From: Nitrospirota bacterium
GTDB taxonomy: Bacteria; Nitrospirota; Nitrospiria; Nitrospirales; Nitrospiraceae
NCBI GenBank assembly: GCA_039932735.1
Contig: JBDTPK010000001.1
Coordinates: 1 to 59,529 of the forward strand
Length of the DNA stretch: 59,529 nt
Direction: 5' to 3'
The notes beneath the pieces were generated by a model. It was not told the DNA's origin, did not search any database, and saw nothing but the letters and a program-made list of their open reading frames with translations. The first letter of the stretch is position 1; the number at the start of each line of letters is the position of its first letter. The translations under genes were made by a program, and so were the position numbers. Positions 4,629 to 21,535 of this stretch are shown piece after piece.

Positions 4629-5470
4629 CGGCGGTCGAGATTAGCCCGTTGGCCCAAAGCCATGAGTCTCATCACGCTCAGGGCTGGATAGTCTCGATGT
4701 TCTGTCACGCGTTCGGCATCGGGGGCGTACTCTTGCTTTTGGCAGACTTTGAAACGCCCGTGCGCCCGAACACATTTCAGTGGGAAGTTGCCATGGTGGA
4801 GGCTCCTCCGACAGTAGAGCCGCCGCCTGCTCCATCAACGCCGACCCCCGTTCCTCAGCGCCAGGTTGAACGGTCGATCGACCCTCTCCCTCCTGTCAAA
4901 ACCATAGAAGCGGTTCCGCAAACGGTGCACGATGTTGTCACTCCGAATGAGGCGATTTTGGAGCGCTCAATCGCGCAGACTACGGAAAGTTCCACGGTAG
5001 TGACTCAGGCAGTCACCACCAACCACGAATCGGTGGCAGAGCAGGCAACTGTCGAATACGCGCCGATCGTGAGACAGAAAGAACTGGTGGCGCAAGAATC
5101 TCCTCGTTCCGACTCACAGTCATTCGAGGTTGAGCATCGAGTCGTCCAGCATCGGTTGGTCACGGTTCGCGAGACACAAACTGACTATGGCTGGCTTCGA
5201 GATGCGCTCTGGGGCCGCATCCATGAGCTGAAGCGCTATCCGTCGCAAGCCAAGGAGCACCATTGGGAAGGGAAAGTCGTGGTGCAAGCAGTTATTCGCG
5301 CCGACGGCACAATCGTCGAGTGTGAAGTTGCAGAAAGCTCTGGCCGGGCCATCCTGGATCAGGAAGCCCTAGCAGTCATGAAAAAAGCCTCCCCCTTGAC
5401 GCTCAAGCATCCGTTGGGGAAGGCGAATATCACGCTTCTTATTCCAATCAACTACAAGTTGGAGGGCTAG
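4625..5470 (+). CDS. tonB: TonB-family energy transducer, paralog 2
   Basis: TM helix, a Pro-rich spacer (APPTVEPPPAPSTPTPVPQ) and a TonB C-terminal domain (YPSQAKEHHWEGKVVVQAVIRADGTI...SSGRAILDQEALAVM). Confidence 0.85.
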   Translation: MTAVEISPLAQSHESHHAQGWIVSMFCHAFGIGGVLLLLADFETPVRPNTFQWEVAMVEAPPTVEPPPAPSTPTPVPQRQVERSIDPLPPVKTIEAVPQTVHDVVTPNEAILERSIAQTTESSTVVTQAVTTNHESVAEQATVEYAPIVRQKELVAQESPRSDSQSFEVEHRVVQHRLVTVRETQTDYGWLRDALWGRIHELKRYPSQAKEHHWEGKVVVQAVIRADGTIVECEVAESSGRAILDQEALAVMKKASPLTLKHPLGKANITLLIPINYKLEG

Positions 5471-5550
5471 CAATAGGGCCCTCCTTGACCGCGGTGATCG
5501 GAGAGGCGGAGAAGACGTCACGTGACAGAACGATAACCAGGAGAATCGTG

Positions 5551-6009
5551 ATGATGAATCACTCAATGAGCTGGCGCATATCGATGTTGTGCCGCGTGCT
5601 GTGTGTGATGTTGGCGTGTTCTGTGATGGGAAATTCTGTCTGGGCGCAAACCAAGACGGACAAAGTCTTCCATGCCGTGGCGATGGATGCCAAGGGGGTC
5701 GAAACAGACATGAAAAACGTCATGTTCTATTGGGAGGAGAAAATCAGTGAGACGGCGTTCGTCCCGCATGAGACCAGGGAGGTGCCGGTCAAACGCGGCA
5801 CGGCTACGATCAAGATCAAGTTCGAGGCTATTAAACATATTGATCTCAAACCATCCGGGAACGGTGCTCTGCCGAATGTCACGATTATGCTCAACGACGG
5901 CAAGACGGGAGACTTTGTCCTCGCTATTGCGGGGAGTTTCAAGGGCCAATCAGACTTCGGAGAGGTTGAGCTTCCGGCGACTGAACTGAGGAAGCTCAGC
6001 TTTAGATAG
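5551..6009 (+). CDS. Hypothetical exported protein (~130-aa mature form)
   Basis: Signal peptide (MMNHSMSWRISMLCRVLCVMLACSVMGNSVWA|QT) with an AxA-type cleavage site and aggag upstream of ATG 5551. I recognise no family. The ORF is open from 5485. Confidence 0.5.
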   Translation: MMNHSMSWRISMLCRVLCVMLACSVMGNSVWAQTKTDKVFHAVAMDAKGVETDMKNVMFYWEEKISETAFVPHETREVPVKRGTATIKIKFEAIKHIDLKPSGNGALPNVTIMLNDGKTGDFVLAIAGSFKGQSDFGEVELPATELRKLSFR

Positions 6010-6254
6010 CGCTGCAATGGGCCGTCGGTCAGACATTTGTGTACGTTCATTCGTTTCTGAACTTCGGCCTTTCCGGATTCTGAAGGTGAACAGGGTTGGT
6101 ATCCCTGGTCTAGAGCTATCGCCAGTTGGCGATCTTTCCGACGGAGAAGTCAGGTTTTTCACTTCTCATGCGTCTAACACACCGTGGATGGAAATTCGGT
6201 CTGTGCGCTCTCGCTGAACAGGAAATAAATTTTGGGCCAGGGCTCGGTGAGGCA

Positions 6255-6443
6255 ATGAGTGAACAGCGTGCGCCGGTGCCAGCTGCCATGGATGTTCGAT
6301 GTCACTGTGGCAGGCTGATTGCTCGATGGGAGGGACGCAGTCTCGTCATTAAGTGCGCTCGGTGCGGGCGTTTCGTACAGATTCACTCTTCGGCCATCGG
6401 TGGAACTCCGCCCCCTGATATGAGCTTAAAGCCCCACCGGTAG
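6255..6443 (+). CDS. Small zinc-ribbon protein, Mu Com-like CxxC...CxxC pattern (62 aa)
   Basis: RCHCGRLIARWEGRSLVIKCARCGRFVQI has two Cys pairs with the spacing seen in Com-type zinc ribbons. The start codon is uncertain (ORF open from 6126). Confidence 0.35.
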   Translation: MSEQRAPVPAAMDVRCHCGRLIARWEGRSLVIKCARCGRFVQIHSSAIGGTPPPDMSLKPHR

Positions 6444-6494
6444 CCCCATCCACAGACAGACGTTCATCTACGCGAGGCCAACGGAACTTGAGTC

Positions 6495-6539
6495 CAGAGC
6501 CCACGGCTGCTTAAGCAGCCGTGGGCTCTGTTATTTCTG
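6495..6539 (+). terminator. Perfect 16-bp stem hairpin, probably an intrinsic terminator or RNA-stabilising element
   Basis: cagagcccacggctgc-ttaa-gcagccgtgggctctg followed by ttatttct. It lies between the zinc-ribbon ORF and the receptor gene. Confidence 0.6.
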
Positions 6540-6580
6540 AGGCGATAAGAACACGCCAGTGAAGAGGGGGAGAAACCATA

Positions 6581-9073
6581 ATGACATGGCGCGAGATGGG
6601 AATTGGGCTAGGAGTGTTCGTATTGTTGATAGTATTGGCCTTCGCGGTGGTACATTCCGCATTTGCGCAGTCGGACGCGGCAACCATTACCATTCCACCT
6701 CAAGAGTTGTCGACAGCGCTGACAGCGTTGGCCGAACAAGCGAATCTACAAGTACTCTATGCGTCGGAACTGACGAGCGGGAAAATGACGAAAGGACTCA
6801 CCGGCACGGTCACCCCGGAGGAGGCCGTCCAACAGCTGTTAGACGGCACCGGCCTGGGCTATACGTTTACCGATGCCAAGACCGTGACGCTTCAGGCTGC
6901 GGCGCCGGTTGTTACGAGCCCGGGCGATCTTTCTGCTCCCACGGAACCGAGGACGATCAAACAGAAACCGATAAAAGTTCCAGAAGTCATGGTGCGAGAC
7001 GTTAAAGAACGCAGCTATACCGCCGACGAAGCATCGAGCGCCACGCGCATCCCGGTGCCCATTCAAGAGACGCCCCGATCAGTTGAAGTGGTCACGCAAC
7101 AGGTGATCGAAGACCAAAAGATCATTCGGATGAGCGATGCGCTGTTAAACGTGAGCGGCACGTCCCAGTTCAGCACACAGGGCGGTCAAGGCGGGAGCTT
7201 CATGATACGCGGATTCGCGTCCGACCTGAATGTGTTCAAGAACGGCTTTCGGGATGACAGTACGTTTAGCTCCCGTGCTCAGCGCGACATTATCAATCTC
7301 GAGAGCATCGAAGTGGTGAAGGGTCCGCCGTCCTACCTCTATGGTCGCTCCGATCCGGGCGGTATCATCAATCAGATTACGAAAGCTCCTTTGAGGAATC
7401 CGTATTATTCAGGTGAGATGATCATCGGCAGTTACGGGCTCTATCGCCCGACGGTCGACATCGGGGGGTCGCTGAACGAGAGCAAGACGTTGACCTATCG
7501 GTTCAACGGCATGTACGAATCTGCCGGGAGTTATCGGGACGGGGTAGACTCGAAACGCATCTTCCTCGCGCCGACACTTGGATGGGAAATTGGGCCACGA
7601 ACAACGTTCCGCTTTGAAGGCGAGTATCTCTACGATCGATTACCTATCGATCGAGGCTTGGTGGCAATCGGCGACGGGGTCGCACCCATTCCAATCAGCC
7701 GTTTCTTAGGGGACCCGACGAGAAAAATCGAGACGAATCATGGGAAGGCCACGTTGACGTTGTTACATGAATTTAATGACATGTTCAAATGGCGCACCGC
7801 ATTCAGAGGGGCTGCGACCCACAGCCGATACTCCAGCCTGGAGTCCAATTTTCTGGTGGGTGACGAAAACGATGGAATCCTTGACTTAGCGCGATATGAG
7901 ATTCCGACGACGGTTCAAAGTCACTACTTGCAAAATGAATTGCACGGCCTGTTCTCAACCGGCTCGATCAAGCATAAGACCATTCTTGGCATCGAACTGG
8001 GCCGAGAGGTCTCCTCGGCATCAGCATCCGGTGATTTCGGCGGCGATACATCCACACCGGGAGCGTTCAGCTTCATTAATATCTTCAACCCGAATGACAG
8101 GCTGTTTTTAAACTCGACCCTGACGAAATTCAGCAATACCAAGCAAACCAATAACATTATCGGCCTCTATTTCGGGGATCACATCAGTCTTCTGGAAAAT
8201 CTTCATCTACATGGAGGGGGTCGGTTCGACATTTTCGAACAGAACCTGACCAATCGCCCGGACGATTTTGTGGCAACCCAGACCGAAACCAGTCAAACCA
8301 ATAGAAAGTTCAGCCCATCCATCGGGCTGACATACCAACCGTGGAAGCCCGTAGCCCTCTACGCCAACTACACAGAGTCCTTTGCGCCTCAAGCCTCAGG
8401 ATCAAAAAGCACCACTGGGGCGCTGTTCGACCCGGAAACCGGGAAGGCCTATGAAGGCGGCGTCAAATTCCAGGCATTTGAAAACAGATTGCGGTCAACC
8501 ATCGCCGTGTTCGACATCAAGAAGAAGAATGTATTGACGAACGATCCGCTGAATGGGTTCTTATTTTCTGTCTCGACGGGCCAGCAGCGCAGCAAAGGCA
8601 TCGAATTCGACGTGGCGGGAAGAATACTGCCCGGGTGGGAGATCATCGCCAATTATGCCTATATTGATGCGCGGATCGACAAGGATGTGTTGTTTCTTGA
8701 AGGGAGTCGCGTGTCCAACTCGGCCTTACACCAAGGCAGGGTGTGGACAACCTATTTTTTCCAGGAAGGAGTTGTGAAGGGCTTCGGCGCGGGGATCGGC
8801 ATGTTGGCGCAAGGCAGTCGGAACGGAGTGTTTCAATGCCAGGACCCCGCGAACTGCCAAGCACCCTTCGAGCTTCCTGGCTATGTGAGAATGGACGGCG
8901 CATTGTATTACCGGAAGCAGGATATATTTGATCGAACCAATCTGCTGGCCGCGTTGAACTTTACGAACCTTCTGGATCACCAGTACTTTACCGGCACTCA
9001 AAATTTCAGAGAAATCATCTATACGGGAGCGCCCTTTACCGTGATCGGCTCGCTGAAGCTGGAGTTTAATTAA
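6581..9073 (+). CDS. TonB-dependent siderophore receptor, transducer type with N-terminal signalling (STN) domain
   Basis: Signal peptide, an STN-like segment (ITIPPQELSTALTALAEQANLQVLYASELTSGKMTKGLTGTVTPEEAVQQLLDGTGL), a plug (ETPRSVEVVTQQVIEDQ..., IEVVKGPPS) and a long beta-barrel. A gggggag RBS precedes the ATG. Confidence 0.95.
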   Translation: MTWREMGIGLGVFVLLIVLAFAVVHSAFAQSDAATITIPPQELSTALTALAEQANLQVLYASELTSGKMTKGLTGTVTPEEAVQQLLDGTGLGYTFTDAKTVTLQAAAPVVTSPGDLSAPTEPRTIKQKPIKVPEVMVRDVKERSYTADEASSATRIPVPIQETPRSVEVVTQQVIEDQKIIRMSDALLNVSGTSQFSTQGGQGGSFMIRGFASDLNVFKNGFRDDSTFSSRAQRDIINLESIEVVKGPPSYLYGRSDPGGIINQITKAPLRNPYYSGEMIIGSYGLYRPTVDIGGSLNESKTLTYRFNGMYESAGSYRDGVDSKRIFLAPTLGWEIGPRTTFRFEGEYLYDRLPIDRGLVAIGDGVAPIPISRFLGDPTRKIETNHGKATLTLLHEFNDMFKWRTAFRGAATHSRYSSLESNFLVGDENDGILDLARYEIPTTVQSHYLQNELHGLFSTGSIKHKTILGIELGREVSSASASGDFGGDTSTPGAFSFINIFNPNDRLFLNSTLTKFSNTKQTNNIIGLYFGDHISLLENLHLHGGGRFDIFEQNLTNRPDDFVATQTETSQTNRKFSPSIGLTYQPWKPVALYANYTESFAPQASGSKSTTGALFDPETGKAYEGGVKFQAFENRLRSTIAVFDIKKKNVLTNDPLNGFLFSVSTGQQRSKGIEFDVAGRILPGWEIIANYAYIDARIDKDVLFLEGSRVSNSALHQGRVWTTYFFQEGVVKGFGAGIGMLAQGSRNGVFQCQDPANCQAPFELPGYVRMDGALYYRKQDIFDRTNLLAALNFTNLLDHQYFTGTQNFREIIYTGAPFTVIGSLKLEFN

Positions 9074-9118
9074 TTACGGCGGAACGCATGGGCCTCACCG
9101 TCTGATTGAGACCGACAC

Positions 9119-10324
9119 ATGAGTCATCCGGCATGGCAGAAAATGTGGCTGCGCACCCATTGGTGTCTCGGTTTGTTCGTGGGGTTTGTGTTTGTCTTGA
9201 GCGGTGTGACTGGCAGCACACTGGTGTTTTACCAGGCCATCGATGAGTGGTTGAACCCCGAGCGGCTCATCGTAGCAGGCAGCGGCCCCTATCGGTCGTT
9301 CGATGAGATGGTAGCCGCTGCCAGAGCTGCCCGTCAGGATCTCATAGGGCCAGATGATCTCCTCATGCCGGTCGACGGGCACGGCGTCGTTGTCGCGGAG
9401 TTCAGATCTCCAGCTGAACGACCTCACCGTTTCCACACCATTGAAGTCACAATTGATCCGTATACGGCTACAGTGTTGAGCCACGACCGAGTGTGGGGTG
9501 ACACTTTCGTGTCCGTGTTGTATGAGGTGCACAGGGGGTGGTTGCTTGAAGAAACCGGCGAAACCCTCGTGGGAATCTGTGGGTTACTGTTACTTCTGTC
9601 GGTCGGGACGGGCCTGTATCTGTGGTGGCCTAAGGCGGGGAGAGGTCGGCAAGCGATCACGTTCAACCCTAACGGAAGCACGATCCGTCGATGCTATGAT
9701 CTGCACAAGCTCAGCGGAGTTGTCGGCTCGATTGTGCTGCTGGTGCTCGCCTTCACCGGTCTGTATCTCGAATTTCCGGACTATTTCATTGCTCTCGTCG
9801 AAATCGTTTCCCCCGTTTCCGAAGAGGTTACGTGGCATTCAACGGTGAGCCAAGAAGCGCGCCCTATTACGGTCGATCATGCCGTGGCCATCGCCAAGGA
9901 GCGGTTTCCTACCGCTGAATTGAAGTGGATCGGACTGCCGCAACATGCGGACGACGTAGTTCAAATCGGTCTGCGCCAGCCAGAAGAAGTTCGCCGCACG
10001 AGCGGTGAAAGCATCGTATGGCTCGACCAATACAACGGCGCAGTGTTGGGGGTGCGCGACTGGCGGCTGCTCGCGGGTGGCACAACTTTTCTTGCCTGGC
10101 TGTTTCCCCTGCACAACGGGGAAGCCCTGGGCATCATAGGACGAATCATAGTATTCGTCACCGGTTTCGTCCCACTCATTCTTTATGTCACAGGCGTCCG
10201 CATGTGGTGGTTGAAACGAGTCGCACGCCGACGACAAAAACAAGCACCAGAAGTTGGAATGACCAGAATAAGTATCAATGCATCCCCTACGAGTGAGGAA
10301 CGGCTCACGGTATCTCACAGGTAA
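9119..10324 (+). CDS. PepSY-associated TM-helix protein (PiuB/FoxB-like, putative ferric-siderophore reductase)
   Basis: WLRTHWCLGLFVGFVFVLSGVTGSTLVFYQAIDEWLNPE at the N-terminus, four TM segments, and PLHNGEALGIIGRIIVFVTGFVPLILYVTG near the C-terminus. Confidence 0.85.
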   Translation: MSHPAWQKMWLRTHWCLGLFVGFVFVLSGVTGSTLVFYQAIDEWLNPERLIVAGSGPYRSFDEMVAAARAARQDLIGPDDLLMPVDGHGVVVAEFRSPAERPHRFHTIEVTIDPYTATVLSHDRVWGDTFVSVLYEVHRGWLLEETGETLVGICGLLLLLSVGTGLYLWWPKAGRGRQAITFNPNGSTIRRCYDLHKLSGVVGSIVLLVLAFTGLYLEFPDYFIALVEIVSPVSEEVTWHSTVSQEARPITVDHAVAIAKERFPTAELKWIGLPQHADDVVQIGLRQPEEVRRTSGESIVWLDQYNGAVLGVRDWRLLAGGTTFLAWLFPLHNGEALGIIGRIIVFVTGFVPLILYVTGVRMWWLKRVARRRQKQAPEVGMTRISINASPTSEERLTVSHR

Positions 10325-10435
10325 CGCGTGCCAGACGGTCTTGCATCGGTCTTCCTGCATCTCCGCAGATGCGTAACGGAAGTGTGTACATCCATCAGCA
10401 TCAAGTCATGGTCAGGGTAGACGTCTCTTCTGCGT

Positions 10436-10540
10436 CTTACTCACAAGTTGGTAATTTGGAAAACACAACGTCTTCGTTGACCTTATTCTAAGCCGGTTTT
10501 GTTGGCGGTGCTGTCGTCTTAATTACTGACTACTGAGTAA
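10436..10540. repeat. Right copy of the ~105-bp imperfect inverted repeat (partner at 6..110)
   Basis: See the left copy. This copy lies 28 nt upstream of the first possible start of the NRPS operon. Confidence 0.85.
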
Positions 10541-10609
10541 TCACAGTGAGACATCCCTCGCGTCGAGTTGCTTCTACGAGCTACCTTGAGAAAGAACGGA
10601 CTCCTATCG

Positions 10610-13600
10610 ATGGGCGCTGAATACGAAACCTTCGTCGATCTTTTACAGTGGCGGGTACGTCTGAATCCGAAGCAACTGGCATATACCTTTTTGGTAGATG
10701 GTGAAACAGACGCACTTCACCTTACCTACGGGGAGTTGGATCGCCAGGCTCGGTCCATAGGTGCACGGCTGCAATCATTGGGCGGTATTGGGGAGCGCGC
10801 ACTCTTGCTGTATCCTCCCGGATTGGACTATATCGCCGCCTTTTTCGGCTGCTTGTACGCAGGAGTCATTGCCGTACCGGCCTATCCTCCGCAACGCAGG
10901 CGCACAATGCCCAGACTGCAAGCCATCCTGGAAGACTCGCAGGCCACGCTGGCGCTGACGACGACACAGATCCATGCAAGAGTCCAGCGTCTCTGCAATC
11001 AGGATCCCGGCTTGGATTATTTGCAAAGACCGCAATGGCTGAACACTGATGTGCCGGCACGGGATCTCGAAACAAGCTGGTGCAGGCCTGAGATCAACGG
11101 TCTGACGCTCGCGTTTCTTCAGTACACGTCAGGGTCGACAGGCATACCGAAGGGCGTCATGGTCAGCCACAGCAACCTTCTGGACAACGAGCGGATGATC
11201 ACGCAGGCATTCGGTCATACGGAAGGAACGACTGTGCTCGGATGGTTGCCCCTCTATCACGATATGGGATTGATCGGAAACGTTCTTCAACCGCTCTATC
11301 TCGGTGTGCCGTGCGTGCTCATGTCCCCTATTCACTTTCTCCAGAAGCCTTTCCGATGGCTATCCGCAATCTCGCGATATCGTGCGACGACCAGCGGAGG
11401 GCCGAATTTCGCCTATGACCTGTGTGTGCGTCAGACGACGCCCGAGCAGCGTGCGTCGTTGGATCTCAGTTGCTGGACGGTCGCGTTCAATGGAGCGGAA
11501 CCGATCCACGCCGGCACGCTCGATCGATTCACGGACGCGTTCAGCGCGTCCGGATTCCGTCGCGAGGCGTTTTATCCCTGCTACGGGTTGGCGGAGGGGA
11601 CCTTGCTGGTTTCCGGCGGAGACAGGACGACTCCTCCGGTGCTTCGAACGATCAAAAAGGCGGAATTGCAGCAGCACTGCGTCCTCGCTGCAACTGGAGC
11701 CGATAGAGAGACGCAGCAGTTGGTCGGGTGCGGGTATCCTCGATTTCACCAACAGATCCGCATCGTGAACCCCGAGTCGTTACGAATCTGTCCGGCAGGT
11801 CGTGTCGGAGAAGTGTGGGTGAAGGGCCCAAGTATAGCGGGGGGCTATTGGAATCGACCGGAAGAAACGTCCCAGACGTTCGAGGGCTACACCTCGGACA
11901 GCAGCGAGGGGCCGTTCCTTCGCACGGGTGACCTCGGGTTTGTGCAGGACGGCGAACTGTTCATCACCGGGCGTTTGAAAGACCTCATCATCATCCGTGG
12001 CCGTAATCATTATCCTCACGACATCGAACTGACGGTACAACTGAGTCATGCAAGTCTTCGACCGGAAGGCGGAGCCGCATTCTCTATCGAGCTGCAAGAA
12101 AAGGAATGGCTGGTCGTGGTCCATGAAGTGGAGTCCTGTCGTGTACCATTCGATGGCGAGACGGTAATAGCCGCGATTCGCCAGGCCGTCGCCGAATACC
12201 ATGAAGTGCAAGTCGCCGCGGTTGTCCTCATCAAGGCTGGGACTCTCCCCAAAACGTCGAGCGGAAAGGTCCAGCGGAGTCTGTGCCGCATGAAGTTTCT
12301 CGCCCGGGAATTCGATGTGATCGAGCAGTCCGTTTCGCCGCCTTCTCTTATTGGAGGTGGAAACGAAGCGGGTGAGCGGGCGGCCGTTGTGCAAGGGGAT
12401 GATCTTGAAAAGATCGTCGTCGAGATTTGGTCGAAAGTGTTGCAGCAGCCGACGATCCGGCCGCAGGACAATTTTTTTGCCATGGGCGGGGACTCATTGC
12501 GTGGCACGCAGGTGCTAGCCCGTTTGCAGGAAACCTGTCGGATCGATGTGCCATTGGACGCGCTCTTCGACTATCCGACCGCGGCTGAATTCGCCGCCCA
12601 TATCGAGACCCTCACGCCCCCTGCTGGCGCGTCCTCGGATGTCACCATCCACGCCGCGTCGCGGGAGGGGGCAGTGCCTCTATCGTTTGCGCAGGAACGG
12701 TTCTGGTTTCTCGAACAGCTGTCACCGGGAACTCCGTTCAACAATATTCCCATCGCCCTGCGGCTGAACGGCTCGCTCGATGTGGAGGTGCTTCGTCGAT
12801 CACTCGACGAAATCGTTCGACGCCATGAGATTCTCCGTGCCTCCTTCGTGCTGCACAACGGCCAACCGGCCCAGATTATTGCTCCCCGTCTCGACATTCC
12901 GTTTTCGACCGAAGACCTGAATCGTGCCTCCGAGTCAAGCCGGGAAGAGCAGCTCCAACGCCTGGTCGAAGAGGAAGCCCGCCGTCCGTTTGATTTCATG
13001 AGGGAGCCACTTCTTCGCCTTCGATTGTTCCGAATCAGCGAAACAGACCATGTGCTGTCGTTGACTGTCCACCATATCGTCGCGGACGGCTGGTCCATGG
13101 GTCTTCTCAGCCGGGAACTGGCGGCGTTGTATCACGCATTCATCGAGGGCCGTGTTTCTCCGTTGCCGGCTCTTCCGATCCAGTATCTCGATGTGGCGCT
13201 TCATCAGAGACAAGGCGTCCGAGAGGAAGAGTTCCAGCGGCAAGCGACCTACTGGCAGCAGCGTCTTGATCATGTTTCGAACATACTGAGTCTGCCGTTC
13301 GATTATCCCCGCCCGGAAGTACAGGGGTATCGAGGGGCGCGCCATGATTGGACGCTGGAGGCATCGGTCGTGCAGCAGTTGCGGACGGTGGGGTCTCGAC
13401 ATCGGACGACGTTGTTCATGACGCTGCTGGCAGCCTTCAACATCCTGTTGTTCCGCTATAGCGGCCAATCCGATTTCTGTGTCGGTACGCCGGTGGCCAA
13501 TCGCAACCGAATCGAGTGCGAACCGCTGATCGGCTGCTTCGTCAACACGGTGGCCTTGGGCGCCGATCTTTCCGGCAATCCGTCCCTTCCTGAGTTTCTC

Positions 13601-16333
13601 GATCAGGTTCGGGCGACCGTCCTGGGCGCGCAGGCGAACCAGGAGATTCCATTCGAACGATTAGTCGATGAGTTGAAGGTGGCCAGAGACTTGGGGCATA
13701 CACCGATTTTTCAAGTCATGTTCGTCCTGGAGGACCGTCTGTCGGATGTACGTTCCTTGGGAGATCTGGAGGCGTACAGGATGAATGTGAACACGCAGAC
13801 ATCCGTGTTCGACCTCACGTTGGAGATGGCGGAGAAAGCCGACGGAAGTCTGACGGCCGTGTTCGAATACAGTACCGATCTGTTTGCCGGCCCCACAATC
13901 GTTCGCATGGCCGAACATCTTCACGTCTTGCTGACTCAAATCGTCGCCTTCCCGGAGTCCCGCGTGAGCGAACTACCGATGCTGACGGCGAACGAACGCG
14001 CGTATGTCCTCGCAGACTGCAACGAGACGCAGGCGCTCTATCCATCTGAGTCTTGTCTGCATCAATTGGTTGAGGCACGGACAGCCGGCAGTCCGGACGC
14101 CGTGGCGCTGCTGTGCGAGGGGCGTTCGTATACCTATGCCTCCATTAACAGCAGAGCGAATCAACTCGCCCGATATTTACGGGCACAAGGGGTTGGTCCG
14201 GAGATTCCCGTGGCGCTGTGCGTGGATCGGTCCCTCGAAATGGTGGTCGGTCTCCTGGGAATCCTCAAGGCCGGTGCGGCCTATGTGCCCATGGATCCGG
14301 CCTACCCCAAGGAACGGAAGTCCGTCATTCTCAAGGATGTTCAGCCACGGCTGCTCTTGACGCGAGGGAAGTTTGCCGGAGGATTGCCGGATCAAGCGGC
14401 ACCGGTCTTCGCGCTCGATGAAGATTGGACGGTGGTGGCCCGCTTCCCGGACACCAATCTGCCGATTCTCACCAGCCCGGACAATTTGGCCTACATTCTC
14501 TATACCTCCGGGACGACCGGTCGGCCCAAGGGGACCGGCATCTCCCATCGGGCCTTGGTGAATCACGGCACCGCGATGGTGATGCAGTACGGCCTTGCTT
14601 CGACGGATCATGTGCTTCAGTTCGCGTCCGTCAGCTTCGATGTAGCCGCCGAAGAATGTTTCCCAACATGGATTGCGGGGGCGACGGTGGTGTTGCGTCC
14701 CAATGAGCCTGTGCCTGCATGTGCGGATTTTCACGCATTTCTTCGCGAGCAGGGTCTTACGGTACTGAACCTTCCGACGCCCTACTGGGCCGGATGGGTC
14801 GAGGAGCTCGAGCGAACCGGCCTGCCGCTTCCACCGTTGATCAGACTCGTCATCGTGGGGAGCGAGAAGGCGTTGCCCGACTGTCTGGTCCGCTGGCAAC
14901 GCGTGGCGGGAGGGCAGATTGTCTGGTGCAATTCGTATGGGCCGACGGAAGCCACGATTACCGCCAGCAGTTATGTGCCGGGACCCGAGATGGATTGGCG
15001 CACTGCAGTCACCGTGCCGATCGGACGACCGATTGCCAACGTCGAACTGTTTGTCCTCGATTCGCATCTTCACCCTGTTCCACTCGGTGTACCGGGTGAC
15101 CTCTTCATCGGAGGCGCGGGGCTCGCACGCGGGTATCACCGCATGCCGGCCCTCACTGCCGAGAAATTCATTCCGCATCCCTTCAGCCGGCGACGGGGGG
15201 AACGGTTGTATGGAACCGGTGATCGCGTCCGCCGTCGGCCGGACGGCCAGGTGGAGTTTCTGGGTCGGCGGGATGAACAGGTGAAGATCCGGGGGTTCCG
15301 TATCGAGCTCTCTGAAATTGAAGTCCATGCGCGCCAACACCCGCAGGTGAAGGAAGCCAGAGTGTTTTTGGAGTCGGGGGGGGCTCGCGGGTGGACCGCG
15401 CTCATCGGCGGCCTCAGCGAGGTCGAGCAAGACCGGATGCTACGGGATGTCGAGTGTTTGACGGCGGTGGAAGCGCAGTGGGTCTACGATTTGGAATCGG
15501 ATGCTGAGGAACGGAGGAAGACCGTGATCCAACGAAAGCCGGAGTTCGATGTGTACCTGAAGGTCAACAAAGGAGAATTCTTGACCCCTCCGCGTGAAAA
15601 CCAGCGCAACTGGCTCTTGCGCCGGGCGCTCGATGAGTTCTCGGACGATCTCGTCGCTCTCGACGCTATTTCCAAGCGGTTTGTTTCCGGATCCGACCGG
15701 GTCAGCATCGAACAGAGCTGGACGGGGAGTCGGGCGGAATATACGCCGTCTGAACTGATCATCGAGGGGCAACAAGTCATGCAGGATTGGGAGGCGCCTT
15801 TGATGAAGGCGATGGCGAACATCGCCACGGAATCCCGCGGCGATGTGCTCGAGGTCGGATTCGGAATGGGTATCTCAGCGTCCTACATTCAGGCCGGCCA
15901 GCCCCGCTCGCATACTATCATCGAGTGCAATCGTGAGGTGATGACCGCTTTTGCGGACTGGACCGGCCGCTACCCCGATCGGGACATCCGTCTAGTGCAA
16001 GGACGATGGCAGGAAGCGGTGGGGGCACTCTCTGAATTTGATGCCGTATTTTTCGATACGTACCCGGCGAGTGAAGCGGAATTCGAAGAGTCGGTGATCA
16101 ACAGCATCAACTTTGCCGAAGCATTCATTCCTGCGGCCGCGAAACTATTGCGACCCGGCGGTGTGTTTACCTATTACACGAATGAGATCGATTCCTTCAG
16201 CCGACGGCATCAACGCTTCCTGTTCCAGCACTTCAGCTCGTTCACGCTCAGCATCGTGCGCTCGCTCCTTCCGCCGGAGGATTGTCACTATTGGTGGGCG
16301 GACTCGATGGCTGTCGTCAAGGCGGTGAAGTGA
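10610..16333 (+). CDS. Loading/first-module megasynthase: FAAL - ACP - C - A (through motif A8) - GAMT/RMT2-like methyltransferase
   Basis: FAAL (YTSGSTGIPKGVMVSH...GDLGF...KTSSGKVQR), carrier (FFAMGGDSL), C (HHIVADGWS), and A (LYTSGTTGRPKG...SFDVAAEE...NSYGPTEAT...YGTGDRV...KIRGFRIELSEIE). After A8 comes a ~130-aa linker and then a GAMT-like domain. The ORF is open from TTG 10568; ATG 10610 is the likelier start. Confidence 0.9.
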   Translation: MGAEYETFVDLLQWRVRLNPKQLAYTFLVDGETDALHLTYGELDRQARSIGARLQSLGGIGERALLLYPPGLDYIAAFFGCLYAGVIAVPAYPPQRRRTMPRLQAILEDSQATLALTTTQIHARVQRLCNQDPGLDYLQRPQWLNTDVPARDLETSWCRPEINGLTLAFLQYTSGSTGIPKGVMVSHSNLLDNERMITQAFGHTEGTTVLGWLPLYHDMGLIGNVLQPLYLGVPCVLMSPIHFLQKPFRWLSAISRYRATTSGGPNFAYDLCVRQTTPEQRASLDLSCWTVAFNGAEPIHAGTLDRFTDAFSASGFRREAFYPCYGLAEGTLLVSGGDRTTPPVLRTIKKAELQQHCVLAATGADRETQQLVGCGYPRFHQQIRIVNPESLRICPAGRVGEVWVKGPSIAGGYWNRPEETSQTFEGYTSDSSEGPFLRTGDLGFVQDGELFITGRLKDLIIIRGRNHYPHDIELTVQLSHASLRPEGGAAFSIELQEKEWLVVVHEVESCRVPFDGETVIAAIRQAVAEYHEVQVAAVVLIKAGTLPKTSSGKVQRSLCRMKFLAREFDVIEQSVSPPSLIGGGNEAGERAAVVQGDDLEKIVVEIWSKVLQQPTIRPQDNFFAMGGDSLRGTQVLARLQETCRIDVPLDALFDYPTAAEFAAHIETLTPPAGASSDVTIHAASREGAVPLSFAQERFWFLEQLSPGTPFNNIPIALRLNGSLDVEVLRRSLDEIVRRHEILRASFVLHNGQPAQIIAPRLDIPFSTEDLNRASESSREEQLQRLVEEEARRPFDFMREPLLRLRLFRISETDHVLSLTVHHIVADGWSMGLLSRELAALYHAFIEGRVSPLPALPIQYLDVALHQRQGVREEEFQRQATYWQQRLDHVSNILSLPFDYPRPEVQGYRGARHDWTLEASVVQQLRTVGSRHRTTLFMTLLAAFNILLFRYSGQSDFCVGTPVANRNRIECEPLIGCFVNTVALGADLSGNPSLPEFLDQVRATVLGAQANQEIPFERLVDELKVARDLGHTPIFQVMFVLEDRLSDVRSLGDLEAYRMNVNTQTSVFDLTLEMAEKADGSLTAVFEYSTDLFAGPTIVRMAEHLHVLLTQIVAFPESRVSELPMLTANERAYVLADCNETQALYPSESCLHQLVEARTAGSPDAVALLCEGRSYTYASINSRANQLARYLRAQGVGPEIPVALCVDRSLEMVVGLLGILKAGAAYVPMDPAYPKERKSVILKDVQPRLLLTRGKFAGGLPDQAAPVFALDEDWTVVARFPDTNLPILTSPDNLAYILYTSGTTGRPKGTGISHRALVNHGTAMVMQYGLASTDHVLQFASVSFDVAAEECFPTWIAGATVVLRPNEPVPACADFHAFLREQGLTVLNLPTPYWAGWVEELERTGLPLPPLIRLVIVGSEKALPDCLVRWQRVAGGQIVWCNSYGPTEATITASSYVPGPEMDWRTAVTVPIGRPIANVELFVLDSHLHPVPLGVPGDLFIGGAGLARGYHRMPALTAEKFIPHPFSRRRGERLYGTGDRVRRRPDGQVEFLGRRDEQVKIRGFRIELSEIEVHARQHPQVKEARVFLESGGARGWTALIGGLSEVEQDRMLRDVECLTAVEAQWVYDLESDAEERRKTVIQRKPEFDVYLKVNKGEFLTPPRENQRNWLLRRALDEFSDDLVALDAISKRFVSGSDRVSIEQSWTGSRAEYTPSELIIEGQQVMQDWEAPLMKAMANIATESRGDVLEVGFGMGISASYIQAGQPRSHTIIECNREVMTAFADWTGRYPDRDIRLVQGRWQEAVGALSEFDAVFFDTYPASEAEFEESVINSINFAEAFIPAAAKLLRPGGVFTYYTNEIDSFSRRHQRFLFQHFSSFTLSIVRSLLPPEDCHYWWADSMAVVKAVK
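15755..16330 (+). other. GAMT/RMT2-like SAM methyltransferase domain embedded after A-domain motif A8
   Basis: Colinear with my recollection of guanidinoacetate N-methyltransferase: VMQDWEAPLMKAMA (GAMT VMERWETPYMHALA), VLEVGFGMGISAS (VLEVGFGMAIAAS), IIECN (same), FDAVFFDTYP (FDGILYDTYP), LLRPGGVFTYY (LLKPGGVLTYC), LLPPEDCHYW (LVPPADCRYY). Confidence 0.75.
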
Positions 16334-16334
16334 T

Positions 16335-16988
16335 ATGGAGGATCTTCTCCAGCGGATCGATCGTCTGACCGAACCGCAGCGGAAACTTCTCCGTCTCAGA
16401 CTAGGAGGCAGGAGAGAGGAACGGGAAAGCGAGTCTCGATTGGTGGGGTATGTCGTGCTTCGTGCGCATGACGCGTCGACCGTTCATGGTCTCCGGGGAT
16501 TTCTGGCCGAACGTTTGCCGGATTATATGATGCCGGCGACCTGGATCGTCCTCGATTCCTTCCCACTGACGTCTCGCGGAAAAGTGGACCATAAGGCTTT
16601 GCAGGGTATGGTTCAGCCGGCGCCGGACACGGCGGCTCGGCAGGGAGCACCTCGCAACGACTGCGAGCGAGCCATTGCGACGATTTGGGCAGAGGCGCTG
16701 GGTCTCCACGACGTCGGACTCCACGACAATTTCTTCGATCTGGGAGGGCATTCCCTTCTGTTGCCGAAGGTCCTTACGCAGGTACGGACCGTAACCCGGC
16801 GCGAGGTATCGATGGTCGATCTCTTTCGTTATCCGACGGTACAGGCATTGGCCGCATATATGGCGGCGGACCAGGTGCCGGTCGCCGAAGAGCCGGTGAT
16901 TCAACAGGTCAAGGATAAGCGGGAAGCGGGCGTGCGCCGGATGAAACAGCAACGACGCCAGAGACAAGAAGCCGTGAGGGGCAAATGA
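16335..16988 (+). CDS. Stand-alone A-domain C-terminal subdomain (motifs A9-A10) fused to a T domain
   Basis: RLVGYVV...LPDYMMPATWIVLDSFPLTSRGKVDHKAL (A9/A10 with the catalytic Lys), then FFDLGGHSLL (T). The ATG lies 1 nt after the upstream TGA, and the stop overlaps the PKS start (ATGA). Confidence 0.85.
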   Translation: MEDLLQRIDRLTEPQRKLLRLRLGGRREERESESRLVGYVVLRAHDASTVHGLRGFLAERLPDYMMPATWIVLDSFPLTSRGKVDHKALQGMVQPAPDTAARQGAPRNDCERAIATIWAEALGLHDVGLHDNFFDLGGHSLLLPKVLTQVRTVTRREVSMVDLFRYPTVQALAAYMAADQVPVAEEPVIQQVKDKREAGVRRMKQQRRQRQEAVRGK

Positions 16989-19900
16989 CGGCGGCCGCCG
17001 ATCGAGCGAGCGAGAGTCAAGCCGAAGACGGCTTGGATGTGGCCATCGTCGGGATGGCCGGCCGGTTTCCAGGTGCAAACAATCTGGATGTGTTCTGGCG
17101 CAATCTTCAGGGCGGTGTTGAGTCCGTCTCCACGCTCAGCCGGGAAGAACTGTTGGAGTCGGGAGTGGAGCCGAAGGTCTTGGATCGGACGAATTATGTC
17201 CGGGCTCGCGCGGTTCTGGCGGATGTCGATCTCTTCGATGCCAGGTTTTTCAACATGACTCCGAGAGAAGCCGACATCATGGACCCCCAGCAGCGGCTGT
17301 TTCTCGAATGTGCGTGGGAAACGCTGGAACGGGCGGGGTACGACCCGGAGCGATACTCCGGATCGATCGGCGTCTATGCGGGATCGAGCACCAGCGGGTA
17401 TCTCTTCAATTTATTTCCTCGCCGGGTACTCCTACAGTCGGCCGCCGACATGGCGGCGATGCTAGGCGTGGAGAAGGATTCGCTCTCGACGCGTGTGTCG
17501 TACAAGTTGAACCTTGAAGGGCCGAGTCTGGCGGTGCAAACGGCTTGTTCGACGTCTCTGGTCGCAGTCCACCTGGCGTGCCAGGCATTGCTGAGCGGGG
17601 AATGTGATATGGCCCTGGCGGGCGGCGTCTCCGTCAATGTGCCGCAGAAAGTGGGCTATCTCTATCAGGAGGGCGGTATCGCCTCGCCGGACGGTCATTG
17701 CCGCACCTTCGATGCCGGCGCGGAAGGCACCGTCGGCGGGAGCGGTGTGGGCCTCGTGTTGCTCAAGCGGTTGCAGGAGGCCGAAGCAGACGGCGATCAG
17801 ATCCTGGCTGTAATCAAGGGCTCCGCGATCAATAACGACGGGGCAGCCAAGGTCGGCTACACAGCACCCCGCATCGAAGGCCAGGCGAAAGTCATCAGAG
17901 CGGCGCACCTGACCGCCGGCGTGACGCCGGACTCAATCTCCTATGTCGAGGCTCACGGAACAGGTACACCGATGGGGGACCCGATTGAAGTGGCGGCGTT
18001 GACCCAGGCCTTTCGGGCCTCGACGGCCCGTACCGGATTCTGCGCGCTCGGATCAGTCAAGACCAATATCGGTCATCTGGATGCCGCGGCCGGCATCGCC
18101 GGTCTGATCAAGACGGTACTGGCGCTCTCCCATCGACAGATCCCGGCGAGTTTGCATTACGTCCGCCCCAATCCCGCCATCGATTTCCCCGCCACACCGT
18201 TTTATGTGAACAGGGCTCTGGCGGATTGGGCGCGTGGTGAGTCGCCGCGTCGTGCCGGCGTCAGCTCGTTCGGGCTCGGCGGCACGAATGCACACGTGGT
18301 GCTGGAAGAGGCGCCTGCGAATCACGAGGCGTCCGTGGTGGAGGACGAAACTCGCTGTCAGTTGCTTCTGTTGTCCGCCCGGTCGGAAGCGGCGTTGAGC
18401 GAAGCGACGAATAGGCTTTTGGCGCATTTCCATGAACATCCGAATCTCTGTCTTGCCGACGTCGCCCATACCCTTCAATCGGGTCGGAAAGCCTTCCCGT
18501 ATCGTCGCTGGCTGACGGCTGTGAATGCGGAGGAAGCCGGACGGCTGCTCTCTCACCCGATGGTTGCGGCAGCAACGGCCGGCCCTGTGACAGGAGAGCG
18601 GCGGGTCGCCTTCATGTTTTCCGGGCAGGGCTCGCAGTATCCGCACATGGGGCGATCGCTCTATCGGCAGCAGCCCGTGTTTCGGGATCATGTCGATCGG
18701 TGCGCGTCGATCTTGAGTCGGCATCTCGGTCGGGATATCCGGACGGTGCTGTTTCCGGTCTCTGCAACGGAACAGGACCTGATTCATCGCACCGTCCTGA
18801 CTCAGCCGGCATTGTTCGTGTTCGAATATGCCCTTGCGCAACTGTGGAAGACATGGGGGGTTCACCCGTATGCCATGATCGGTCATAGCATCGGGGAGTA
18901 CGTCGCGGCCTGCCTATCCGGAGTGTTTTCGCTTCAAGACGCGTTGGCCATCGTGGCGATGCGGGGGCGACTGATGCAGGATCTTCCTTCCGGAAGCATG
19001 CTGGCCGTTCCGCTCACGGAAGCAGGCGTGATGCCGTTTCTGCGCGGGAATCTGGATCTCGCCGCAGTCAATGCGCCTGCGCAGTGCGTGGTCTCCGGTT
19101 CCGATGAACAGATCGCTGCATTGGACCGCGAATTGGCGGCTCAGAACATACAAGGGCGGCGCCTCAAGACATCGCACGCGTTTCATTCATCCATGATGGA
19201 CTCGATTCTGAAACCCTTTGAGTCTTTTCTTGCCGGGATCGCGGTACAGGCCCCTGAGGTTCCCTGGGTGTCTAATGTGAGCGGCACGTGGATTCAACGC
19301 GAAGAAGCGATGGATCCGGCTTACTGGTCGCGCCATTTGCGCTCGACGGTGCGCTTTTCCGAGGGGGTTCGGACGTTGCTGGAACAGTCTGCGCCGGTGT
19401 TGTTGGAGATTGGTCCCGGACGTACGTTGCAGAACCTGGCCCGGCGGCATCCCACTCAGTCCAGCTTGTCCGCACTGGCTTCATTCAATGGACTCGACCA
19501 GACAGAATCCGGACAGGACGAAATGCCCGCCATCCTGACGACGCTCGGTTCTCTCTGGGGAGCCGGTGTTCGAGTGGACTGGACCGGTCTGCACAGCGGG
19601 TACCGGCGGCGACGGGTTGCTCTGCCGACCTATCCATTTGAGCGGCAACGTTATTGGGTGGAGCCTGTTCAGGTTGATCCAGCTCAGGCGCCGGCGTCCG
19701 GCGACAGGCAGGCCGATCTCTCGACGTGGTTCTACCAACCGTCGTGGAAACGGTCGGCGCTGGTCGGGAAGGGCGAACGATGTCCCGACGAACAGTGGCT
19801 TGTTTTTCTCGATGAGCAGCCGACCGGCACGGCACTCGTCAAGGATCTGGAACGACAAGGCCGGTCGGTCGTCAGGGTGTCGACCGGAAATGGATTTGAA

Positions 19901-21535
19901 CGGCGTTCCGACGGGACCTATCGAGTCAGACCCGACTCCCAGGACGATCATGAGTTGTTGCGGCGAGATTTGACCAGCCGAGATCAGCTCCCATCCTGTC
20001 TCGTGCATGCCTGGACAATCGGCGATGAACCGAGAGGGACAACCGCTGCCTTGCGCATGCAGATGGCGCAAGAAAGAGGATTCCTCCACCTGCTCCTTCT
20101 CGCGCAGATATTCGGGCGCCGGCGTAGCGCTAGACTCTCGATTCTCGTGCTTTCTCACGGGTTGCATGATGTCACCGGGGAGGAAACGTTATGTCCTGAA
20201 CAGGCCACGTTGCTGGGGGCCTGTCGTGTCATTCCGCAAGAGTACCCGGGCGTGACATGTCGTGTGATCGACCTGGAAAGATCGTCCGCGGGTAAGCCGC
20301 ACCCGGATGCGCTCCACGATCGCCTGATCGCTGAAGCCAGCAGTCCCGATGCCGAGCCGGTTGTGGCGTACCGAGGTCCGCACCGATGGGTGCAGACGTT
20401 CGAGCCACTTATCCTTGAGAAAAAAGGTGCCGGACCTTCTCTGCTGCGTGAGGAAGGTGTGTATCTCATTACAGGCGGTGTGGGAGGGGTCGGACTCTGC
20501 CTTGCCGAGTATCTCATTCGTACCGTGCGTGCACGGGTGATTCTCACGAGCCGGACGCTTCCGACTCCTAAGCAGCGTGAGCATGTGGCCTGTCTGGAGC
20601 GATCGGGCGGGCGCATTCTGACTCTTCAAGCCGATGTCGCCGATCTTGCACACATGCAGGGAGTGATTGCCGAAGCCTGTCGACAGTTCGGCCGGATTCA
20701 TGGGGTGTTTCATGCCGCGGGGGTCGCCGGCGGCGGACTCCTGGAGTTGAAGACGGCGGAAGCCGTATGGGAGGAATTCCGGCCGAAAGTTTCCGGAGCC
20801 TTGGTGCTCGAAGAGGCGTTTCGAGATGTCCAACCGGAGTTTGTGATGTTCTGTTCTTCCTTGACGGCGGTGGTCGGAGGGGTGGGGCAGGGCGCCTATT
20901 GCGCGGCCAATGCCTTTCTGGACGCCACTGCCCATGCCAGAACGAAACAGGGAACACGCGTCATCTCCGTGAATTTCGATCGGTGGCGTCAGGTCGGCAT
21001 GGCGGTTCAAGCAGAAGCCTGGCTCAAGACATTGCGGGTCGCTGATGCGGAATTAGTCGGCATGACCCCGCAGGAAGGTCAAGAAACAGTCCATCGGATT
21101 CTTCGCGGTCCGAACCTGCCGCAGATCGCCGTGTCCATTCGCGATCTGCCTACGGTGGCTGCGTCCGTCGCTCGGATATCGATGACACAATCGCAGGCTG
21201 CTCAGCCGGCAGCTCCGTCGGTCATCGCAGAGGCAGGGGAGTCGTTGGAACGAGAGATGGGGGACTTGTGGCGACAGATTTTGGGCGCCGAACGCGTGGG
21301 GCTGGAGGATGATTTTTTTCGGCTGGGGGGCGAATCCTTGAGCGCCCTTCAACTGTTGAACCGCGTTCAAGAACTCTACGACCTCGAGCTGTCGCTTCGC
21401 GATTTTTTCGACACGCCGACGGTTTTAGGATTGGTCCGGCAGATTCGCGCGGCGCGAGCCGCTGGGGTACAGCAAGAGGCCAGAATCGTTCCCCTTCCCC
21501 GCGAAGCAAGGCAGTTGCGCGGGGCCTCGGCATGA
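16985..21535 (+). CDS. Type I PKS module KS-AT-KR-ACP
   Basis: KS (TACSTSL, EAHGTGT, NIGH), AT (GHSIGE, HAFHS indicating malonyl), KR (YLITGGVGGVG, YCAAN) and ACP (LGGESLSA). No DH or ER motifs seen. Confidence 0.95.
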   Translation: MTAAADRASESQAEDGLDVAIVGMAGRFPGANNLDVFWRNLQGGVESVSTLSREELLESGVEPKVLDRTNYVRARAVLADVDLFDARFFNMTPREADIMDPQQRLFLECAWETLERAGYDPERYSGSIGVYAGSSTSGYLFNLFPRRVLLQSAADMAAMLGVEKDSLSTRVSYKLNLEGPSLAVQTACSTSLVAVHLACQALLSGECDMALAGGVSVNVPQKVGYLYQEGGIASPDGHCRTFDAGAEGTVGGSGVGLVLLKRLQEAEADGDQILAVIKGSAINNDGAAKVGYTAPRIEGQAKVIRAAHLTAGVTPDSISYVEAHGTGTPMGDPIEVAALTQAFRASTARTGFCALGSVKTNIGHLDAAAGIAGLIKTVLALSHRQIPASLHYVRPNPAIDFPATPFYVNRALADWARGESPRRAGVSSFGLGGTNAHVVLEEAPANHEASVVEDETRCQLLLLSARSEAALSEATNRLLAHFHEHPNLCLADVAHTLQSGRKAFPYRRWLTAVNAEEAGRLLSHPMVAAATAGPVTGERRVAFMFSGQGSQYPHMGRSLYRQQPVFRDHVDRCASILSRHLGRDIRTVLFPVSATEQDLIHRTVLTQPALFVFEYALAQLWKTWGVHPYAMIGHSIGEYVAACLSGVFSLQDALAIVAMRGRLMQDLPSGSMLAVPLTEAGVMPFLRGNLDLAAVNAPAQCVVSGSDEQIAALDRELAAQNIQGRRLKTSHAFHSSMMDSILKPFESFLAGIAVQAPEVPWVSNVSGTWIQREEAMDPAYWSRHLRSTVRFSEGVRTLLEQSAPVLLEIGPGRTLQNLARRHPTQSSLSALASFNGLDQTESGQDEMPAILTTLGSLWGAGVRVDWTGLHSGYRRRRVALPTYPFERQRYWVEPVQVDPAQAPASGDRQADLSTWFYQPSWKRSALVGKGERCPDEQWLVFLDEQPTGTALVKDLERQGRSVVRVSTGNGFERRSDGTYRVRPDSQDDHELLRRDLTSRDQLPSCLVHAWTIGDEPRGTTAALRMQMAQERGFLHLLLLAQIFGRRRSARLSILVLSHGLHDVTGEETLCPEQATLLGACRVIPQEYPGVTCRVIDLERSSAGKPHPDALHDRLIAEASSPDAEPVVAYRGPHRWVQTFEPLILEKKGAGPSLLREEGVYLITGGVGGVGLCLAEYLIRTVRARVILTSRTLPTPKQREHVACLERSGGRILTLQADVADLAHMQGVIAEACRQFGRIHGVFHAAGVAGGGLLELKTAEAVWEEFRPKVSGALVLEEAFRDVQPEFVMFCSSLTAVVGGVGQGAYCAANAFLDATAHARTKQGTRVISVNFDRWRQVGMAVQAEAWLKTLRVADAELVGMTPQEGQETVHRILRGPNLPQIAVSIRDLPTVAASVARISMTQSQAAQPAAPSVIAEAGESLEREMGDLWRQILGAERVGLEDDFFRLGGESLSALQLLNRVQELYDLELSLRDFFDTPTVLGLVRQIRAARAAGVQQEARIVPLPREARQLRGASA

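Follow-up and report, generated by a model that had tools for sequence, protein, structure and literature searches.

Layout of the divided module

The stretch of DNA analyzed here (hereafter the window) comprises 59,529 nucleotides from a Nitrospirota bacterium (GenBank assembly GCA_039932735.1, contig JBDTPK010000001.1, positions 1 to 59,529 of the forward strand) and contains a nonribosomal peptide synthetase (NRPS) adenylation (A) domain whose core motifs are distributed over two consecutive open reading frames (ORFs). ORF1, the first megasynthase gene, carries motifs A1 to A8 and continues into a methyltransferase (MT) domain resembling guanidinoacetate N-methyltransferase (GAMT), and ORF2 carries A9, A10 and the carrier (T) domain. 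A preliminary description of the sequence had reported that ORF1 ends at a TGA at the end of the GAMT-like domain, with ORF2 beginning 1 nt later in a different frame, and that ORF2 bears A9 and an A10 with the catalytic lysine, followed by a T domain; the former was read directly in the sequence and the latter was confirmed by motifs and Pfam. The features are as follows, with the evidence for each in brackets; AF2 denotes AlphaFold2 and P0081 an unsplit orthologue described below.

10568–16333, + strand: ORF1, FAAL–ACP–C–A(A1..A8)–linker–GAMT-like MT (translation, Pfam, motifs)
15263–15373, + strand: first half of the A-domain C-terminal subdomain, on ORF1, with A8 (GRRDEQVKIRGFRIELSEIE), a helix and the strand KEARVFLE (P0081 alignment, AF2)
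15374–15511, + strand: helical linker, aa 1603–1648, ...GGLSEVEQDRMLRDVECLTAVEAQ..., a candidate docking element (AF2, family consensus)
15512–16330, + strand: GAMT-like S-adenosylmethionine (SAM)-dependent MT domain, aa 1649–1921, ending ...WWADSMAVVKAVK (phmmer, profile, Foldseek, homologue annotation)
16331–16334, + strand: ORF1 stop codon TGA and the single spacer base T at 16334 (sequence read directly)
16335–16988, + strand: ORF2, 217 aa, with N-terminal helix motif, A9 and A10 half-subdomain, carrier (T) and basic C-terminal helix (translation, Pfam, motifs)
16335–16427, + strand: ORF2 N-terminal extension, aa 1–31, MEDLLQRIDRLTEPQRKLLRLRLGG..., a candidate N-terminal docking helix (family consensus)
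16428–16610, + strand: second half of the A-domain C-terminal subdomain, with strand RLVGYVV, A9 LPDYMMP and A10 PLTSRGKVDHK including the catalytic Lys (Pfam, alignment, motifs)
16671–16859, + strand: carrier (PCP/T) domain, Ser in FFDLGGHSL (Pfam PP-binding, aa 113–175, E = 1.9e-13)
16985–21535, + strand: ORF3, a polyketide synthase (PKS) module KS–AT–KR–ACP downstream of ORF2 (Pfam)

The true start of ORF1 is probably the ATG at 10610. Pfam recognized in its product AMP-binding (the FAAL), PP-binding (aa 617–679), Condensation (aa 700–1145) and a second AMP-binding domain (aa 1169–1524). The 3′ end reads ...GTC AAG GCG GTG AAG TGA, so that the stop at 16331–16333 directly follows the complete MT. 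ORF2 starts with the ATG at 16335, 1 nt past this stop and in the +1 frame; because a TGA lies in the ORF2 frame at 16326–16328, no earlier start is possible. On ORF2, RLVGYVV occupies aa 35–41, A9 (LPDYMMP) aa 61–67 (nt 16515–16535) and A10, which reads PLTSRGKVDHKAL, aa 77–89 (nt 16563–16601). Pfam AMP-binding_C matched ORF2 with only its second half (profile positions 24–76 of 76). The PKS gene begins within the end of ORF2, its ATG overlapping the ORF2 stop codon (ATGA at 16985–16988).

The last ~270 residues of ORF1 constitute a complete GAMT homologue (phmmer against PDB 1xcj, E = 2e-26; family profile, E = 5e-33). PF27704 (GuanidinoAc_N-MeTrfase) is annotated on homologues of the MT in their source databases; the Pfam copy scanned here predates the PF27704 model. 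In an AF2 model of the MT region (pLDDT 86, pTM 0.77), the C-terminus is the final β-strand, and the top Foldseek matches were human and rat GAMT over the whole ~230-residue chain (TMt 0.79–0.82). With GAMT (PDB 1xcj, 3orh) the window MT shares the whole-chain fold (TMt ~0.8, 31% identity), the SAM motif (VLEVGFGMG, aligned with VLEVGFGMA in GAMT), the equivalents of E45 (in WEAP; WETP in GAMT) and of D134/T135 (in FFDTYP; YDTYP in GAMT), and a native C-terminus at the equivalent place. In ternary-complex structures of GAMT, E45 and D134/T135 bind and deprotonate the guanidino group. The window MT has in addition an N-terminal segment of ~60 aa (PEFD...QRNWLL...DDL..LD) that GAMT lacks, and, unlike GAMT, which works as a free enzyme on a small molecule, it is fused to, or encoded beside, NRPS A domains.

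Conservation of the split in Nitrospira and across phyla

The preliminary description had raised a sequencing indel or a recent frameshift as a real alternative. On this view, which can be widened to assembly errors and to mutations of this strain alone, A–MT–A–T would really be one continuous polypeptide. Removal of one base would indeed fuse the frames, and we confirmed from the sequence that without the T of the TGA the reading would continue as ...K-D-M-E-D.... Real artefacts also occur in such data. A candidate second split A domain in locus L002 (10924–15074, minus strand; C–A / A_C–T–TE) was rejected as an ordinary frameshift inside A6 with the out-of-frame residues visible, and three proteins have an out-of-frame MT C-terminus: P0187, and P0212 and P0239, in which RLVGRFDG replaces WWADSM and the MT is artificially fused to the downstream A9–A10–T frame. 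By contrast, the junction of the window is repeated in independent data. Logan contig L001, assembled from SRR26386622, carries 3 SNPs relative to the window over 1420 bases, has the identical GTGAAGTGATATG junction and encodes a protein identical to ORF2.

Scanning one genome per GTDB species with the MT profile gave 362 confirmed loci, 80 of which were analyzed. The 16 closest are Nitrospira-lineage orthologues (MT identity 80–93%) from Ca. N. defluvii FP929003, the metagenome-assembled genome (MAG) chromosome of Nitrospira sp. UBC2, Nitrospira sp. T9 and 13 other assemblies. All 16 have a stop, 1 nt and an ATG or GTG at the junction, and none of these clusters is fused, which answers the comparison of orthologous clusters proposed in the preliminary description. 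Fifteen use TGA as the stop and one (L010) uses TAG, the spacer base is T, C, G or A, the flanking codons vary synonymously, and the ORF2 N-termini have diverged in sequence yet stay in frame. Because the junction is kept in 16/16 orthologues while stop, spacer and codons vary, these comparisons indicate that the split is maintained over the long term and is not a sequencing error. Together with the position of the cut, exactly at the conserved native MT C-terminus in 80/80 loci, and with the variable spacers of other loci (−4 to +250 nt, in all frames), this refutes the indel or recent frameshift, to which we give a vanishingly small chance.

The split is also a property of the whole family, to judge from homologues well beyond this locus. 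The MT ORF stops 0–7 codons past ..KAVK in all 80 loci, with TGA, TAA and TAG all in use. When a junction-spanning query was searched, 77/77 MT-bearing matches covered the MT side only, and these 77 homologues end in ...WWADSMVVVKAVK or at most 9 residues beyond. Where the MT follows an A8-truncated A domain (~55 loci, many phyla), A9–A10–T always lies on a separate ORF, and a continuous A8–MT–A9 frame was found in none of these ~55 loci. This is the next ORF in 51 loci and the window according to tblastn, and in 44 including the window according to strict motifs. The distance between the two ORFs varies from an overlap of 4 nt (ATGA) to about +250 nt, and all three relative frames occur. The split loci belong to Acidobacteriota, Verrucomicrobiota, Planctomycetota, Cyanobacteria, Myxococcota, Chloroflexota, Gemmatimonadota, Proteobacteria and others. 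In a wider search among 1.84 billion representative proteins, the MT lay at most 18 residues from the C-terminus in the best 150 of 1590 matches, except in P0212 and P0239.

Other loci separate the pieces further. One unrelated gene stands between the A–MT gene and the A9–A10–T gene in L003/L004 and in L028. The intervening gene of L003 (10358–11467) and L004 (3871–4980) encodes 369 aa without a Pfam match, and the second gene there continues as T–C–A–T; in L028 this arrangement is seen ~+1.4 kb past the MT. Four loci have a three-ORF form, C–A(..A8)–helix / MT (263–273 aa) / helix–A9–A10–T(–C), at the following coordinates: L075, 3130–7370; L079, 2930–8774; L080, 3023–8757; L084, 2951–8809. 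The MT also occurs in other architectures, namely as free-standing MTs and, in Streptomyces, as A(full)–T–MT. The Streptomyces loci L047, L056 and L060–L063 (P0009, P0010) encode stand-alone proteins of this kind of ~870 aa with the Arg-like code DVEDNGCITK. Since the GAMT-like MT follows the carrier in these proteins, it can be used without splitting an A domain.

A fused A–MT–A–T protein could in principle still arise by programmed +1 frameshifting or by read-through of the stop codon. The Nitrospira ORF2 does lie in the +1 frame right after a UGA with a Shine–Dalgarno (SD)-like element upstream, an arrangement superficially like that of prfB, and in a few distant loci (L027, L031, L037, L066 and L080) ORF2 is in the frame of the MT. 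However, the junction contains no slippery sequence, the AAG or AAA codon before the stop being unable to re-pair in +1; the stop of L010 is TAG; spacing and relative frame vary freely over the family; an intervening gene or a separate MT ORF is present in some loci; and ORF2 homologues without exception begin with a start codon of their own at a conserved N-terminal motif. Recoding of either kind is therefore extremely improbable. The SD-like sequence itself, AAGGCGGTGA, lies at 16319–16328 (−16 to −7 relative to the ORF2 ATG) inside the K-A-V-K codons and matches the SD consensus AAGGAGGTGA at 9/10 positions. The wobble bases of GCG GTG are invariant in 17/17 sequences, whereas nearby Ala and Val codons vary. 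These features make the SD for coupled reinitiation that had been suggested plausible. Together with the single-base spacer of the window and the ATGA overlaps of other loci, they indicate that translation of ORF2 is probably coupled to that of ORF1.

Insertion site, flanking helices and precedents

A Nitrospira MAG (GCA_049841075.1; locus L086) contains a syntenic cluster without the MT, in which the gene at 10001–12433 encodes a contiguous C–A–T protein, P0081. Its gene order is TonB receptors, ECF sigma/FecR, FAAL–ACP, C–A–T, PKS, ABC, aminotransferase and penicillin amidase. A C domain of L086 appears to be divided between the FAAL–ACP–C gene and the C–A–T gene, which lie 400 nt apart. ORF1 aa 1101–1602 aligned without gaps to P0081 aa 105–606 (63% identity), ending in KEARVFLE and KEARVLQE, respectively, and ORF2 aa 32–215 aligned to P0081 aa 619–808 (51%). 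The second alignment begins only at ORF2 aa 32, and the N-terminal extension (aa 1–31) is absent from P0081. At the insertion site P0081 has a loop of 12 residues, where the window has a cassette of ~350 residues made up of ORF1 aa 1603–1921 (a ~46-aa helical linker and the MT), the stop, spacer and start, and ORF2 aa 1–31. The alignment thereby confirms an auxiliary domain between A8 and A9, the insert replacing the 12-residue loop, and it places the cut in the a8–a9 hairpin loop, inside the C-terminal subdomain and not between the core and the subdomain. The preliminary description had assigned the whole mobile C-terminal subdomain to ORF2, acting in trans; this holds for the second half, but the A8 hairpin, the helix and the KEARVFLE strand remain on ORF1. 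In the AF2 model the A8 hairpin and the helix are formed and model residues 25–41, including KEARVFLE, are unstructured, as expected for a strand whose partner is missing.

The A core of the window is 63% identical to the MT-less orthologue and 64–68% identical to more distant MT-bearing Nitrospira orthologues; across phyla, A cores are 33–48% and MTs 50–64% identical. Since the A core is as close to the MT-less orthologue as to these more distant MT-bearing ones, the cassette was gained or lost within one orthologous cluster lineage. We infer that a cassette of linker helix, MT gene with its own stop, start codon and N-terminal helix replaced the 12-residue loop of an ordinary A domain. Flanking direct or inverted repeats around the cassette, sought as a trace of insertion, gave only short, chance-level matches, and the GC content over the cassette (0.55–0.58 against 0.60–0.64) shows a slight dip that is not decisive.

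Helices flank the MT on both sides. Between the subdomain strand and the MT, ORF1-like proteins share the motif L..L...EAE.LL.E.E, and AF2 folded the linker as four helices (model residues 42–85). ORF2-like proteins, taken from the retrieved loci, begin across phyla with M.D...RI..LS...R.LL..RL, followed by a variable spacer and RLVAYVV. The A-core ORFs of the three-ORF loci L075, L079, L080 and L084 end in the linker motif and the A9–A10–T proteins of the same loci start with the N-terminal helix motif. Because the two helices thus lie at the ends of separate proteins in these loci, one C-terminal and the other N-terminal, they probably act as a docking pair that holds the two halves together. 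Like the COM and docking domains of NRPSs and PKSs, they are short terminal helices on consecutive, translationally coupled subunits; known docking pairs, however, join complete domains (T/E to C, ACP to KS), whereas these helices would join two halves of a subdomain. ORF2 carries another helix at its other end (aa 187–217, nt 16893–16988), which is basic and is the sole confident part of its single-sequence AF2 model (pLDDT 76–89). A similar basic tail (RLKRQREQRR...) is present in the MT-less orthologues, and this C-terminal helix is probably a docking element towards the KS.

A domains interrupted between a8 and a9, such as TioS A4–M4 and PchF, are reportedly covered in reviews by Labby (2015) and Lundy (2020). 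They resemble the window in having a SAM-dependent MT between A8 and A9 of the C-terminal subdomain, but they are single A–M–A polypeptides with an internal MT insert of another MT family; in the window, the stop at 16331–16333 precludes a single A8–M–A9–A10 polypeptide. A closer parallel is the corallorazine synthetase Crz1/Crz2 of Corallococcus coralloides B035, described in 2024, whose split A domain was called unique and the first of its kind by its authors (PMC11342130). As in the window, A1–A8 are followed by an MT ending in a stop, and A9/A10 and then T lie on the adjacent gene. The A domain of Crz1 was inactive alone and almost quantitatively active when Crz1 and Crz2 were mixed 1:1 (PMC11342130). 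The A(Gly)+nMT segment comprises Crz1 aa 1534–2376 (843 aa) with an MT of ~410 aa ending in ...KEQTR (PMC11342130). The two systems differ in several respects. The Crz1 MT, known from its published description, is a conventional type I backbone N-MT with Lundy motifs, whereas the MT of the window is a ~270-aa GAMT homologue ending in ...KAVK; Crz activates Gly, whereas the A domain of the window is probably of Arg type; and in Crz2, A9–A10 lie within the first 65 aa, leaving little room for an N-terminal helix like the 31-aa one of ORF2. Conserved flanking helices, a three-gene form, a universal split over many phyla and a probable side-chain target further set the window family apart. A GAMT-like nature of the Crz1 nMT was also considered, as conversion of Gly to sarcosine fits GAMT chemistry; it was rejected, the 843-aa segment aligning with type I MT motifs and ending in KEQTR. 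Papers on a GAMT-like NRPS domain or on split A domains other than that of corallorazine were not found in the literature searched, which did not extend to paywalled articles. A split functional A domain thus has one experimental precedent, and the GAMT-type, multi-phylum form is new by the literature found.

The inactivity of Crz1 alone also fits a different account, in which the A domain of ORF1 is inactivated, ORF2 is a carrier with a vestigial A9–A10 stub loaded by another enzyme, and ORF1 serves as FAAL–ACP–C with a stand-alone-like MT; stand-alone GAMT-like MTs and A–T–MT proteins exist, so the MT needs no interrupted A domain. Yet A3–A8 on ORF1 and A9 and the A10 Lys on ORF2 are intact and conserved across phyla at 31–80% identity, conservation of the A core matches that of the unsplit orthologue, the two genes remain adjacent and coupled, and Crz1 and Crz2 together regain full activity (PMC11342130). 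We consider the loss of the A domain very unlikely. By analogy with Crz1/Crz2, and because A9/A10 are conserved and the genes coupled, ORF2 would complement the A core of ORF1 in trans.

Substrate code, probable methylation target and significance

The Stachelhaus code of the window A domain is DVENIGSITK, which agrees at 8/10 positions with the published Arg consensus D-[A/V]-E-D-[I/V/L]-G-A-[V/I]-[T/D]-K (PMC12283262), so the activated substrate is probably of Arg type. DVENAGVVTK was rejected as an Arg code for this comparison; it is published at the Ahp position of cyanopeptolin. Most family members have codes similar to that of the window. In some 40 loci with Arg-like codes, the MT without exception keeps the D134/T135 equivalent, and the position equivalent to 45 is E in all of them except L037 and L039, where it is Q. 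The code DSALIAEVW(K) has been assigned to His (PMC12283262), and in 9/9 loci with DSALIAEVW the two MT pocket positions are Q/H or H/Q. All four three-ORF loci belong to this type, with the code DSALIAEVW and a Q/H pocket. Because the pocket residues of the MT partition with the code of the A domain, the MT probably methylates the side chain (guanidino or imidazole) of the activated residue.

The same split architecture could instead house an MT that acts on the α-amino group, that is, on the backbone. The characterized a8–a9 interrupted A domains with N-MTs all act on the α-amine (general knowledge; PMC11342130), and GAMT itself methylates a nitrogen attached to the glycine carbon. For a common α-amine target, however, it would be unexpected that the E45/D134 pair is kept with Arg-type codes and replaced by Q/H or H/Q in 9/9 His-type modules, and we regard backbone methylation as unlikely.

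We therefore favour methylation of the side chain within the following scheme. ORF1 provides the A core and half of the small subdomain, together with the helical linker and the MT with its native C-terminus and stop. ORF2, probably translated by coupling, starts with the N-terminal helix and adds what is missing from the subdomain (a strand and a helix, with A9 and the A10 lysine), then the carrier and the C-terminal helix. The two proteins would associate and complete the subdomain across the a8–a9 hairpin, and only then would adenylation and loading onto the ORF2 carrier take place. The MT would then N-methylate the side-chain guanidino group of the tethered residue, and the downstream PKS module would take over the intermediate bound to ORF2. 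Overall, the sequence evidence makes it quite likely that the module is a genuine, evolutionarily maintained heteromeric adenylation domain, translationally coupled, with an Arg-type substrate and side-chain guanidino methylation.

Several observations weigh against this interpretation. Modelled alone from its single sequence, ORF2 folded poorly in AF2 (pLDDT 44). A Pfam scan (E <= 10) of the linker, the ORF2 N-terminal helix and the ORF2 tail returned nothing beyond a chance-level Sigma70_r4_2 match, the helices resemble no described family of docking domains, and the N-terminal motif is missing from the ORF2-like protein of L027. The Arg substrate was assigned from a code of 10 residues, two of which (N278, S322) deviate from the consensus, and the co-variation of pocket and code may stem from only two or three clades and not have arisen many times independently. 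Finally, in P0122 (1262 aa) one A domain is followed by a tandem pair of GAMT-like domains; the MT C-terminus can thus be extended, and structure alone fails to explain why the MT always ends the protein. More tentatively, and with somewhat less than even confidence, we propose that the window represents a widespread NRPS block, not described before, in which a gene for a GAMT-type side-chain N-MT sits in the a8–a9 loop of Arg or His A domains, always splitting them into two or three polypeptides that would be reassembled by docking helices, the cassette being gained or lost as a unit.

ORF1 and ORF2 are flanked by genes of an iron-regulated, siderophore-type lipopeptide cluster (963–10324 and 21576–52697). 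Upstream are genes for TonB, an ECF sigma factor, FecR, TonB, a TonB-dependent receptor with an STN domain and PepSY_TM. Downstream of the PKS gene are an ABC exporter, a class III aminotransferase, a PvdQ-like penicillin-amidase acylase, a type II thioesterase, TauD and three multimodular NRPS genes. In the last NRPS (43680–52697), a TauD/TfdA-type dioxygenase is fused after the terminal C domain (TauD aa 2703–2990, ~nt 51786–52649), replacing a thioesterase, and a free TauD gene lies at 28245–29282.

These results suggest that the corallorazine type of split is no curiosity: hundreds of loci in more than 10 phyla would have an obligatorily split A domain around a different MT. If this is true, the a8–a9 loop offers NRPS engineering a natural, portable cut site with candidate docking helices. 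For annotators and for software that predicts biosynthetic gene clusters it is a warning that A domains without A9/A10 are not automatically pseudogenes or frameshifts. Clusters with and without the cassette constitute a natural experiment on how the insertion of a stop-bearing gene inside a domain may become fixed. From the proposed chemistry, Arg with an N-methyl-guanidino group and His with an N-methyl-imidazole group would be expected in as yet unknown peptides, among them the lipopeptide siderophore-like product that would be made by Nitrospira, an environmentally important nitrite oxidizer.

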